Both the position numbers and the translations under genes were made by a program. A model generated the notes under the pieces. That model was given only the letters and a program-made list of their open reading frames with translations. It did no database searches and was not told the origin of the DNA. Positions 5,332 to 8,221 of a DNA stretch of 38,116 bases are shown one piece after another. This stretch comes from a virus (taxonomy: Duplodnaviria > Heunggongvirae > Uroviricota > Caudoviricetes), in IMG/VR virus record IMGVR_UViG_2802429226_000004, positions 1 to 38,116 of that record; one strand, 5' to 3'. The number at the start of each line of letters is the position of its first letter. The first letter of the stretch is position 1.

Positions 5332-5916
5332 TTATTGTTTGCTTTTTTCGTTCTGGTTGATGACAAATTCAATGTAACTTTCGATCTTTGCTTTCTCGGT
5401 TTCGGGTAACAATGCGTAGCGTGAGCGGTCATAGTTGATAGTCGCAGGGTCGTGCGGGTGAATCAGTAGTTCATATCCGTGACGCCCGAATGCGGATGCA
5501 ACATTCTCCAGGGTGGAAATGGAAACGCTGACCTCATTGTTTAACAGGCGGCTGATTGTCACCTGGGCGACGCCGGATGCGCGGTGAAGTTTTCCCTGTG
5601 TTGAAAGGTCGCGGCTTTCGCTCATCCAGCGTTCCAGGTTGTGAGCCGCCAGCTGACCTATATCGCTCGGGCCGACAGGCTGAAAACCCTCCTGAGAAAG
5701 CGAACGATCAATATCAAGCCAGTTACGGGGTTTATTGGCGGCAGCTTCAATTTTTCGTGCAACCTGGTCGCCGATAACCTTCTTGCCAAGAGCCCAGCGG
5801 TTTACCAGATTTGCCTGAGTTCCAAGTTTTTCTGCCATCCGCGTCTGAACACCATTGAATTCACGGTCGATCAAGTCGTTGAGATTTTGCCTGCGGACGT
5901 CCTGGATACTTTTCAT
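5332..5916 (-). CDS. phage repressor (CI functional analogue) with two XRE-type HTH regions and no S24 peptidase domain
   Basis: 194 aa; N-terminal ...QTRMAEKLGTQANLVNRWALGKK... and a second ...SGVAQVTISRLLNNEVSVSISTLENVASAFG... HTH-like segment; divergent from a Cro-like gene across an operator-rich intergenic region. Confidence 0.75.
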   Translation of the reverse strand: MKSIQDVRRQNLNDLIDREFNGVQTRMAEKLGTQANLVNRWALGKKVIGDQVARKIEAAANKPRNWLDIDRSLSQEGFQPVGPSDIGQLAAHNLERWMSESRDLSTQGKLHRASGVAQVTISRLLNNEVSVSISTLENVASAFGRHGYELLIHPHDPATINYDRSRYALLPETEKAKIESYIEFVINQNEKSKQ

Positions 5917-5970: not shown

Positions 5971-6035
5971 ATTACCCAACAGGTAAATGCACCTCATAGG
6001 TAACTATCCTTGATTTTTGTTACCTTATGGGTGAA
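5971..6035. promoter_or_regulatory. OR-like operator/promoter region between repressor and Cro-like gene (three 17-bp sites)
   Basis: ATTACCCAACAGGTAAA (5971-5987), TGCACCTCATAGGTAAC (5988-6004), GTTACCTTATGGGTGAA (6019-6035); TTGATT-N17-GAATAT promoter-like element overlaps the third site and faces the Cro-like gene. Confidence 0.5.
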
Positions 6036-6070
6036 TATTTATTATCTGAAATAAATATCAGGCAATAGCT

Positions 6071-6301
6071 ATGAGCGATAACGGACATTTCGATTTCAAA
6101 AAGCACTGGCTTGCACTTACTCCGGATGAGCGTGAAGCCTTCGCACAGGAAGCCGGAACGACGAGTCACTATATCCAGACTCACTTAACAGGTAAGCGCA
6201 AAATGCCAGGTAAAGTATTGATGAATGGGCTTTTTAAAGCCTGTAAAACAAGACAATGGCTGCGCTCAAAAGCAGAACTGGCATACTTCTTCTACTCATG
6301 A
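6071..6301 (+). CDS. Cro-like / YdaS-like small HTH regulator
   Basis: 76-aa ORF divergent from the repressor and followed by a terminator; LTPDEREAFAQEAGTTSHYIQTHLTGKR looks HTH-like. Confidence 0.55.
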   Translation: MSDNGHFDFKKHWLALTPDEREAFAQEAGTTSHYIQTHLTGKRKMPGKVLMNGLFKACKTRQWLRSKAELAYFFYS

Positions 6302-6322
6302 TATCCAGCCACAACCCTCTGT

Positions 6323-6348
6323 AGACCGCCATCCGGCGGTCTTTTCAT
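6323..6348 (+). terminator. rho-independent terminator after the Cro-like gene (tR1-like position)
   Basis: AGACCGCC-ATCC-GGCGGTCT hairpin followed by TTTTCAT. Confidence 0.6.
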
Positions 6349-6449
6349 ATCTATTCGCACCTTAAAGGTAATAAAAAACCAAATCTGGTTGATCAAATTT
6401 TCCAATTGTGCAAAATAGCCAATATCAATAACAAAAAGGGGCGGAAAAA

Positions 6450-6662
6450 TTGAAGATAGTAACCAGAATGGAGGCCGCAAAAGCCGGGTTAAATCGCTAT
6501 TTCACAGGAAAGCGGTGCCGTCACGGCCATCTCTCTGAAAGGTATGTTCTGAACGGAACATGTGTTGAATGTGCAATGAATAGCGCCAACCGCCATCGTA
6601 ATGAATTTGCTTGTGCACTAAAGAGTGCAAGAGGGGAAACCTATGGCAAGCAGCTGGATTAA
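6450..6662 (+). CDS. small zinc-ribbon protein (CII position); TTG start inferred
   Basis: 70 aa with C..H...C..C cluster (RCRHGH...CVECAM); AAGGGG 8 nt upstream of TTG at 6450. Confidence 0.4.
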   Translation: MKIVTRMEAAKAGLNRYFTGKRCRHGHLSERYVLNGTCVECAMNSANRHRNEFACALKSARGETYGKQLD

Positions 6663-7473
6663 GGTTGAAGTTATCACTCCTGATAAACCTGAAATTTTTC
6701 AGATAGCAGAAATTCTGGGTATTGATCCAGATGCTGTTCTTGGAAAGCTGGTTCGTATATGGGCATGGGCTGACCAGCAAACAATAGACGGTAACGCTGG
6801 CAGCGTTACAAAAGGAGTACTTGATAGACTCGCTTTTATTACAGGATTTGCTGACGCCCTCATTAGCGTCGGATGGCTTGCTTATCATGACGGCAAACTA
6901 ATTCTTCCAAACTTTGAGCGACACAATGGAGAATCATCGAAAAAACGTGCACTTACGAATAGAAGAGTGGCAGAGCATCGAAAACGAGTAACGCAAAAAG
7001 TAACGCCAACAGCGTTACAAAAGGAGTTACCAGAGGAAGAGGAAGAGGAAGATATATATAAAACCCCACACATAGCGCACGTGCGCGAGGGTGCTCCGAC
7101 CAGTGAAGCGAACAGTACGCCGTTGCAGGTGGCAGAACCTGAATTTCTGGATGGCCTGAGTGAACCCATCGGGAAATTTCCGATGACAGATGGCTGGCTA
7201 CCGTCGCCAGATTTTCGGCGGCGTGCTGCGCTGTGGGGAACGGCCCTGCCGGAACCGGAATTTACACCTGCTGAACTTGCTGCATTCCGGGATTACTGGA
7301 TGGCTGAGGGCAAAGTGTTCACGCAGGTTCAGTGGGAACAAAAATTCGCCAGGCACGTAAATCATATCAGGGGAAAATCAAAAAATGCCGGGAAAAGCGA
7401 TGAGCTTGACTGGAATAACACTGACTGGATAGAAGGGGTGTGGGATGAAATCAACTCCAGAACTTCTCAATGA
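6643..7473 (+). CDS. replication initiation protein (lambda O functional analogue), contains the putative origin
   Basis: ATG at 6643 with GAGGGGA RBS; position directly upstream of a P-like gene; internal iteron-like DNA repeats and a Glu-run linker. Confidence 0.6.
   Translation: MASSWIKVEVITPDKPEIFQIAEILGIDPDAVLGKLVRIWAWADQQTIDGNAGSVTKGVLDRLAFITGFADALISVGWLAYHDGKLILPNFERHNGESSKKRALTNRRVAEHRKRVTQKVTPTALQKELPEEEEEEDIYKTPHIAHVREGAPTSEANSTPLQVAEPEFLDGLSEPIGKFPMTDGWLPSPDFRRRAALWGTALPEPEFTPAELAAFRDYWMAEGKVFTQVQWEQKFARHVNHIRGKSKNAGKSDELDWNNTDWIEGVWDEINSRTSQ
6790..7063. repeat. putative replication origin: iteron-like repeats plus AT-rich tract inside the O-like gene
   Basis: 18-bp direct repeat CAGCGTTACAAAAGGAGT at 6802-6819 and 7010-7027, read in different codon frames; GTAACGC at 6792, 6988 and 7000; GAGGAA x3; then GATATATATAAAA at 7051-7063. 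Confidence 0.4.
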
Positions 7474-8221
7474 GTACGATCGCTTACGTGAGCATGGTGT
7501 TGCTGTGCATGAAGAGCGGCGTGACAGCAATGGCAAAAAGGAGCAGGTTGCTAGAATTTTCAATGAACTATTTGTCCAGTTACAGGCTGCATTTCCTGCA
7601 AGCGTTTCGACCATAAGGGAGCAGAACAAACTTAATGAATTCCGTAAGCAATGGATGCTTGCGTTTCTGGAGAATGGGATCACTACAATGGAACAGGTTA
7701 ACGCTGGTATGCGCCACGCCCGCGCCAGTGAATCTCCGTTCTGGCCGTCGCCAGGGCAATTCATCAAGTGGTGCAAAGACAGCAAGATGGTTCTTGGCGT
7801 CACCATTGACGATGTGATGGCGGAGTTTCACCGGTACAGCAAGGAAAAAAGTTTATATCCTGGTGGTCCAGAAAGATTCCCGTGGCGGCATCCGGTTATG
7901 TACTGGGTCGTATGTGATACCCGCCGTGCAATGTATCAGCGCCAGCTTAGCGAGATTGAAGTTGAGAAACACGCGCGCAGGCTGCTCGATGATTGGGCGA
8001 AAAAGGTGGCTTCCGGACAGCAGATACCCGATCCGGTGATCAGCATACAGGCAAAGCCAGAGCCCATGAGTACACCTCCGGACACAGGGAGAGACGTTTA
8101 CCACCCACCAGGGCGAAGTTTCGGGTGCATGCCTAACGCCGCCACCCTTGGGGGAATAACACCGGCTCAGTGGCTGATGGAGGAATACAGGCGGGGAAAG
8201 GCGGCAGGATTTATCAAGTAA
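7445..8221 (+). CDS. replication protein P-like helicase loader
   Basis: 258 aa; follows the O-like gene with overlap; contains ...SPFWPSPGQFIKWCK..., which I recall as a lambda-P-family signature. Confidence 0.7.
   Translation: MKSTPELLNEYDRLREHGVAVHEERRDSNGKKEQVARIFNELFVQLQAAFPASVSTIREQNKLNEFRKQWMLAFLENGITTMEQVNAGMRHARASESPFWPSPGQFIKWCKDSKMVLGVTIDDVMAEFHRYSKEKSLYPGGPERFPWRHPVMYWVVCDTRRAMYQRQLSEIEVEKHARRLLDDWAKKVASGQQIPDPVISIQAKPEPMSTPPDTGRDVYHPPGRSFGCMPNAATLGGITPAQWLMEEYRRGKAAGFIK

Follow-up and report, generated by a model that had tools for sequence, protein, structure and literature searches.

Origins of replication inside the gene for the initiator are textbook for lambdoid phages, and in phage SPP1 the origin oriL likewise lies within the initiator gene (G38P). 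In iteron plasmids, a winged-helix initiator binds repeats beside an unwinding element; these iterons are tandem direct repeats of 17–22 bp bound by monomers, and Rep dimers bind inverted repeats. The lambda origin, in the middle of gene O, comprises iterons and an AT-rich tract, and two iterons plus the AT tract are enough for unwinding; O also binds single-stranded DNA (ssDNA), and extra iterons add residues to the protein (PMC7466680). Here we analysed a 38,116-nt stretch of viral DNA (IMG/VR record IMGVR_UViG_2802429226_000004, positions 1 to 38,116; hereafter the window) from an epsilon15/phiV10-like phage (Uetakevirus), in which the replication initiator gene at 6643–7473 carries two 19-bp palindromes and a purine/AT tract. 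We consider it probable that 6791–7063 is a phage replication origin inside the initiator gene, laid out on the lambda plan with an initiator of a different family. This region is 99% identical to that of vB_EcoP_ZX5 and 98% identical to that of TL-2011b.

The locus resembles the lambda origin, including its variants in Stx phages, in several respects. In both, the repeats lie within the initiator gene, those of lambda in linker-coding sequence and those of the window with one of their two clusters there, and a P-type loader gene comes next; the lambda iterons (~18–19 bp with internal dyad symmetry) are similar in length and symmetry to the window palindromes, and a purine-biased AT-rich tract (ACAAAAGAAAAAAGAAAAGATTA) follows the iterons on the coding strand, as a short purine/AT tract follows the sites in the window. 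Changes in repeat number alter protein length in lambda and in the window family alike. Unlike lambda O, however, the initiator has an amino-terminal domain (N-domain) without sequence similarity to O and a DnaT-like carboxy-terminal domain (C-domain), and its sites form two clusters 209 bp apart of convergent half-sites arrayed at 11–12 nt, one of them inside the sequence coding for the folded N-domain, whereas lambda has four contiguous iterons. The likeness to the lambda origin proposed in the initial annotation holds for architecture (sites in the initiator gene, one cluster of them in the linker region beside a short low-stability purine/AT tract, and a P-like gene next), but the gene, there called O-like, is not homologous to O. 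Tandem direct repeats of ~17–22 bp, as in iteron plasmids, were not found at the locus; its units are convergent 7-bp half-sites at an 11–12-nt period with a palindromic core, and no homology to the iteron-plasmid or SPP1 systems was detected.

Palindromic half-site arrays and the adjoining purine/AT tract

An exact search located the 18-mer CAGCGTTACAAAAGGAGT exactly twice in the window, at 6801–6818 and 7010–7027; both copies had been noted in the initial annotation, with the first placed one position too far (6802). Shuffled controls gave a mean of 0.06 matches at ≤3 mismatches, and the chance of any exact 18-mer pair ≤300 nt apart in 38 kb is ~2e-4 by a rough analytic estimate. As also claimed, the copies are read in two frames of the gene (start at 6643), copy 1 as AGC GTT ACA AAA GGA GTA (SVTKGV) and copy 2 as GCG TTA CAA AAG GAG TTA (ALQKEL). 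The element is not the simple direct 18-mer repeat that had been described: repeat finding returned a 28-nt unit with the 19-bp palindrome GTAACGC-N5-GCGTTAC as its core, and the half-sites recur at a 12-nt period. The plus-strand GTAACGC copies reported at 6988 and 7000 were recovered, the one reported at 6792 begins at 6791, and inverted copies at 6803–6809 and 7012–7018 had been overlooked.

The two palindromes are spaced 209 nt, with AAAAGGAGT after each (Table 1). Counting both strands, the window has 14 copies of GTAACGC (3.6 expected; 0 of 100 shuffles reached 14), of which five are packed within 228 nt (6791–7018). No further full site (≥12 of 14 arm matches) was found elsewhere in the 38-kb window. 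Site 1 codes for G50-N-A-G-S-V-T56, a predicted loop, and site 2 is translated V-T-P-T-A-L-Q, in a frame other than that of site 1. The proximal cluster consists of four half-sites in exact 12-nt register (6988>, 7000>, 7012< and 7024<, with arrowheads giving orientation), the GTTACC core of the last adjoining the purine tract; in total, two perfect palindromes and six half-sites lie inside 240 nt. Relatives show AAAAAGCGTTACC at the position of the site 2 flank, so this flank is really another half-site. The AAGGAG within the 9-nt flank common to both sites was considered as a Shine–Dalgarno-like sequence and rejected, as no in-frame start follows it.

Table 1 Coordinates of the initiator locus within the window
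Feature	Position	Strand	Description
Replication initiator gene	6643–7473	+	276 aa; PHROG 2509 'replication initiation protein'
Site 1	6791–6809	.	Perfect 19-bp palindrome GTAACGC-TGGCA-GCGTTAC, within N-domain-coding sequence
Extra left-orientation half-site GTAACGC	6988–6994	+	12 nt upstream of site 2
Site 2	7000–7018	.	Perfect 19-bp palindrome GTAACGC-CAACA-GCGTTAC, linker-coding region
Right-orientation half-site GAGTTAC (6/7 match)	7024–7030	-	12 nt past the right arm of site 2
Homopurine tract AGAGGAAGAGGAAGAGGAAGA	7032–7052	+	21 nt; codes for acidic linker EEEEEE
AT tract TATATATAAAA	7053–7063	.	Joins the end of the purine tract in the gene's least stable 20-mer
Lambda-P-like helicase loader gene	7445–8221	+	Overlaps the initiator stop; PF06992, PHROG 109

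The threefold GAGGAA and the AT-rich stretch that had been noted beside the repeats are both present, the former at 7033–7050 inside the homopurine run, which at 21 nt (7032–7052) exceeds every other purine or pyrimidine run in the window, and the latter (GATATATATAAAA) at 7051–7063. The 20-mer starting at 7043 has a dG of -20.4 against a window mean of -28.1, the lowest stability in the gene, and 82 of 38,096 positions (top 0.2% of the window) are as unstable. Across the family, the purine fraction is 0.78–0.86 at +30 to +60 from site 2. The peptide encoded there differs by lineage (EEEEEE, REEKRRE or EKRREE), as does its charge; by this comparison, what is conserved in the tract is purine character and not the peptide. 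Immediately before the purine tract, GCGTTACC or GTTACC is present in most of the 82 loci with two sites (see below), and a GATATAAA(A)GAT-type tract is seen again in many relatives, chiefly enterobacterial ones. We propose that the purine tract is part of an unwinding element. Shortly downstream of the AT tract, positions 7075–7086 form a 12-bp perfect palindrome (GCGCACGTGCGC) that is not kept in TL-2011b; a CTCTCTGCGCG-like motif recurs near the equivalent position in Pseudomonas and Enterobacter relatives and may simply encode a conserved peptide.

The gene that holds these elements encodes a replication initiator, with a full-length profile match to PHROG 2509 (E = 9e-130, residues 1–268 of 276). 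The N-domain (approximately aa 1–115) is followed by a charged linker and then by the DnaT-like ssDNA-binding C-domain (aa 179–249). The C-domain matches the Pfam family DnaT (PF17948, E = 1.6e-18), and its AF2 model (pLDDT ~90) retrieved 4OU6 and 6AEQ in Foldseek (55–58% identity, E ~6e-6, TM to target 0.86–0.94). Likeness to Escherichia coli DnaT is confined to this domain: NCBIfam NF002770 scored 92 bits against a cut-off of 201 and covered profile positions 81–161 only, so the names 'DnaT' and 'primosomal protein I' fit the C-domain and not the whole protein. For the N-domain, searches of Pfam (E = 10), NCBIfam and PDB profiles returned nothing; its secondary structure (H-H-loop-H-H-beta-hairpin) looks winged-helix-like in prediction, with weak matches to winged-helix proteins. 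The initiator is not a lambda O homologue by profile comparison, given that PF04492 gave no match even at E = 10 and that hhalign of the N-domain profile against lambda O returned a probability of 0.2% (lambda O itself, as a control, matches PF04492 at 6e-36). The gene that follows encodes the functional partner of the initiator, a loader that matches Phage_lambda_P (PF06992, E = 1.7e-55) and PHROG 109 'P-like helicase loader'.

Conservation of the sites across the initiator family

Retrieval of homologues relied on two peptide patterns from the N-domain, neither of them overlapping the sites, so that the sample is independent of the sites. The 160 loci obtained (80 from viral contigs and 80 from genomes; 3.4 kb each) were de-replicated to 91 and came from Enterobacterales, Pseudomonas, Burkholderiales (Ralstonia and Achromobacter), Verrucomicrobiota (including Akkermansia) and Planctomycetota. 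Two full GTAACGC-N5-GCGTTAC sites were present in almost all of the retrieved loci, and at least two in 82 of the 91 non-redundant homologues, at gene nt 149–161 and 338–413; away from the gene, the 3.4-kb loci held only ~3 chance-level matches, plus an upstream copy in some lineages. Half-sites (≤1 mismatch) cluster only at gene nt 149–194 and 335–430, in a > > < < pattern with an 11–12-nt period, at a density of 0.9–1.5 per 50 nt in the two clusters against ~0.05–0.1 elsewhere. Left half-sites 11–12 nt upstream of site 2 are common in many homologues; in Enterobacter phage BUCT554 and a Klebsiella phage, the counterpart of the 6988 half-site reads GAAACGC. In these close relatives (79–85% nucleotide identity), third codon positions vary throughout and the block GACGGTAACGCTGGCAGCGTTACAAA is invariant, and among relatives of 79–98% identity the arms of site 2 are unchanged and its 5-nt spacer varies.

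In many Rac-like, Serratia, Pantoea, Yersinia and Erwinia loci (L004, L071–L075, L077–L087, L089, L092–L102 and L135–L136), a third full palindrome precedes the start codon by 31–43 nt; in L063–L068 the distance is 98 nt. This palindrome is often accompanied by extra half-sites and may be an autoregulatory operator or an extension of the origin. Four loci (L154, L117, L106 and L103) lie on very short contigs whose assigned hosts are improbable (Streptomyces, Saccharibacteria, Peregrinibacteria and Ignavibacteriae metagenome-assembled genomes); their sequences are near Pseudomonas or enterobacterial types, and they look like mis-binned or contaminant phage DNA and not a true host range.

Within the sites, arm positions 4, 5, 14, 15, 16 and 18 are 100% invariant at both, and at positions 1 and 2 site 1 is invariant and site 2 is conserved in 81 of 82 loci each; spacer positions 8–11 are variable and position 12 is mostly A. 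Synonymous choice at site 1 is frozen as well (Gly GGT 82/87, Asn AAC 85/86, Ser AGC 76/76 and Val GTT 81/86), with a codon entropy of 0–0.4 bit at G50, N51, S54 and V55, in comparison with 1.8–1.95 bit at other conserved Gly, Val, Pro and Ala positions of the same domain. Site 2 is read as GNAxSVT (f1) in 58 of the 82 loci and as VTxxALx (f0) in 24. Where the last right-hand half-site, GCG TTA CC, was inspected, its translation is A-L-P; most family members therefore use two frames of a single gene to read one motif. The Rac-type insertion in the site 1 loop (GNAECNARGVT) adds 4 aa, exactly one more 12-nt half-site unit. Given invariant arms, frozen synonymous sites and two reading frames, comparison of the homologues shows that the sites are under selection at the DNA level across the family. 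The initial annotation had concluded as much from the frame switch between the two 18-mers, and the family strongly supports it through two-site conservation, invariant arms, frozen codons and frame switching; its statement that the repeats are not explained by protein repeats holds in that the DNA is selected and needs correcting in that site 1 also encodes a conserved peptide, GNAxSVT, and so is under constraint from the protein as well. Variants common to both sites of one genome were observed 23 times against 9.4 expected, a count inflated by shared ancestry (for example, GCGTTAG twice in Pseudomonas, and CCGTTAC twice in Akkermansia and CBW1004C). Such concerted variation fits a single co-evolving binder; as ancestry confounds it, we do not lean on it.

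Comparison of differently assembled loci shows that the sites follow the N-domain, and not the C-domain, the loader or the phage backbone. Phage phiV10, of the same genus, serves as a natural module-swap control: its initiator (gp43) occupies the same genomic slot between flanks that are 96% identical and is likewise accompanied by a P-like loader, and its C-domain is of the same DnaT-like class (46% identity), but its N-domain is HTH_36 and it has no GTAACGC site. Instead, its linker region (L170, 931–1110) holds ATCCCAAAAACGGGAT in ~5 copies, with a 24-nt period, and AACCAGTCATAT in three, coding for PKNGMLND and NQSY peptide repeats; these probably represent an in-gene origin of its own, with iterons resembling those of lambda. 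The Rac prophage, for which an active origin, oriJ, has been reported (PMC3945230), offers a second comparison. The N-domain of Rac YdaU in E. coli K-12 is DUF1376, and at the corresponding position its gene carries ATGTTCAAACA repeats and no GTAACGC sites, whereas Rac-like prophages of other E. coli strains (L004, L080–L087 and L095–L096) combine an N-domain of the window type with a Rac-type C-domain and a DnaC-like loader, and carry the GTAACGC palindromes. The four ATGTTCAAACA-type repeats of K-12 ydaU (L169, 4507–4578), three direct and one inverted, lie in linker-coding sequence, and after them come an AT/purine-rich stretch and a C-rich repeat; this region is a candidate for the position of oriJ.

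Repeat type thus goes with N-domain type: GTAACGC with the window type, ATCCCAAAAACGGGAT with HTH_36, ATGTTCAAACA with DUF1376 and ATCCCTCAAAACGAGGGA with PF04492 (lambda). The site of the window family is near-invariant across phyla, whereas the other N-domain classes compared each carry different repeats. The gene that follows the initiator was P-like in 41 of 87 loci, DnaC/IstB-like in 16, a DnaB-like helicase in 10 and Toprim in 3. A mosaic junction lies at ~7054–7067, directly after the purine/AT tract; the N-module (6643–7067) matches BUCT554 at 85%, and the best counterpart reported for the C-module (7054–7372) is in an Actinobacillus phage (84%). Swaps of initiator domains may use the shared tract as a linker for recombination.

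The origin reading and its rivals

We infer that initiator binding, unwinding of the tract and the start of replication all take place at 6791–7063. In the proposed mechanism, an N-domain dimer would recognize the 7-bp GTAACGC half-sites as inverted repeats, 12 bp centre to centre. The proximal cluster (6988–7030) would hold two such dimers beside 7032–7063, the easiest place to melt, and the distal palindrome (6791–6809), 209 bp upstream, would be brought into the nucleoprotein complex through looping or wrapping. With the tract open, the DnaT-like C-domain, tethered by a linker that is encoded by the same DNA, could hold the single strand and/or hand the P-like loader and host DnaB onto it.

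Several observations weigh against an origin at this place. Only two full sites are present, 209 bp apart and one of them in sequence coding for a folded domain, as against the four contiguous iterons of lambda, and inter-cluster distances in the family (189–264 nt) follow no clear helical phasing, so that looping is no more than plausible. The AT tract is short (11–13 bp), and when stability is computed over 40 or 100 bp the minimum within the gene falls at its 5' end and not at 7032–7063. Literature on the family and its relatives (including vB_EcoP_ZX5 and phiV10/epsilon15) describes no origin, within what could be reached, and the upstream third site of Rac-like loci suits autoregulation as well as it suits an origin. 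The GC-skew minimum, at ~5–6 kb, coincides with the switch in gene orientation and is therefore uninformative; GC skew was rejected as an origin marker because gene orientation confounds it.

The main rival, which is unlikely and does not exclude a role as origin, is autoregulation: the palindromes would be operators bound by the initiator or another phage regulator, repressing or roadblocking transcription and so setting the dose of the initiator, and replication would start elsewhere. A palindrome with a free spacer is typical operator architecture, plasmid Rep proteins use inverted repeats for autorepression, and the third palindrome of Rac-like, Serratia, Pantoea and Yersinia loci, 31–43 nt (or 98 nt) upstream of the start, lies where a promoter or ribosome-binding site would be. 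The window, however, has no palindrome copy upstream of the initiator start. Moreover, the sites always occur with the purine/AT tract in the linker region, where initiators with other N-domains place repeats of their own, and the operators of the immunity region have a different motif.

Less probable still is that the palindromes act as hairpins, either in mRNA (affecting stability, translation or processing) or in ssDNA, where they might support priming or primosome assembly and so match the DnaT-like domain. Approximately 91% of arm pairs are complementary, which would allow a 7-bp stem with a 5-nt loop, and a terminator scan finds stems on the minus strand, where TTTTTG follows site 2. Changes in the arms, however, break pairing in 97 cases, with 1 compensated and 2 wobble, and the core never varies, as expected if sequence and not pairing is selected; together these indicate that the sequence is read and point to a sequence-specific binder of duplex DNA. 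The unpaired extra half-sites in 11–12-nt register would have no role in a hairpin, and Rfam gave no match up to E = 1 in 6300–7600. Invariant pairs are neutral evidence, so a reader that recognizes a hairpin by its sequence would be compatible with them.

We regard as comparably improbable that the sites are bound by another factor (a host protein, or a phage partition, packaging or recombination protein) or are kept as patches of homology for module exchange. The mosaic junction directly after the tract, at ~7054–7067, would suit exchange, and the Cys-rich 70-aa open reading frame (ORF) just upstream could supply another binder. A host factor is hard to reconcile with a motif kept across hosts of different phyla, neighbouring genes other than the initiator vary and leave the N-domain as the sole constant companion of the sites, and homology patches would not freeze synonymous sites for so long without selection. 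Least credible of all is a chance repeat or a protein-level duplication of GNAxSVT with no function in the DNA: both full sites do code for a GNAxSVT-like peptide in one frame in 58 of 82 loci, but site 2 is in the other frame in 24 of 82 (including the window), the last half-site reads A-L-P in the loci inspected, the six-fold-degenerate Ser is always AGC (76/76), GGT serves as the Gly codon in 82 of 87 sequences, with GC-rich Pseudomonas no exception, and the spacer codon varies freely.

Genomic context and meaning for the family

Upstream of the initiator, the 70-aa ORF (6450–6662; CRHGH...CVEC; PHROG 1081) ends within the initiator start and is shared by relatives in the genus. Between the early regulator and the replication genes, positions 6323–6342 hold a strong terminator-like hairpin (AGACCGCCATCCGGCGGTCT and a T-run); in phiV10, too, a terminator is annotated at the corresponding position. 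The replication genes may depend on antitermination or on a promoter of their own. An operator-like motif unrelated to GTAACGC, CACCT[C/T]A[T/A][A/G]GGTAA, occurs at 5989–6003, 6019–6036 and 6357–6371, the first copies lying between a divergent repressor-like gene (5332–5916, minus strand) and a cro/cII-like gene (6071–6301) and the third upstream of the ORF at 6450.

The initiator family is very large (5,457 clusters at 90% identity, E ≤ 1e-8), and annotation of its members goes no further than 'DnaT-like', 'primosomal protein I' or 'hypothetical'. No description of the GTAACGC site of PHROG 2509-type initiators was found in the literature that could be reached. The site is a palindromic code of 7-bp half-sites with a 12-nt period, arranged in two clusters of which one lies within the sequence coding for the putative DNA-binding domain, and near-invariant from Enterobacterales to Planctomycetota. 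It is possible, if doubtful, that the sequence coding for the initiator's DNA-binding domain itself contains the sequence that the initiator recognizes, with site 1 encoding the GNAxSVT loop and units gained or lost as four-codon blocks; such dual coding would lock protein and site together, and GTAACGC, as a single 7-bp origin code, would then have stayed frozen from Enterobacterales to Planctomycetota, in thousands of prophages.

The locus provides a concrete and testable candidate origin for a Uetakevirus phage and for a very large family of initiators. The site definition (GTAACGC-NNNNA-GCGTTAC with half-sites at 11–12 nt, followed by GTTACC and a purine tract) could serve for origin annotation in thousands of prophages. 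The sites also illustrate cleanly how protein and DNA codes can overlap, with two reading frames, frozen synonymous sites and 12-nt insertions and deletions, and as such bear on codon-based evolutionary analyses and on efforts to recode or synthetically refactor phage genomes. With a motif so nearly invariant across phyla, one may ask whether co-resident prophages interfere in each other's replication. If the dual-coding reading is true, unrelated phages and prophages of the family would share origin specificity and might trans-activate, compete with or exclude the replication of one another, cross-talk that the other initiator classes compared would avoid through their different repeats.

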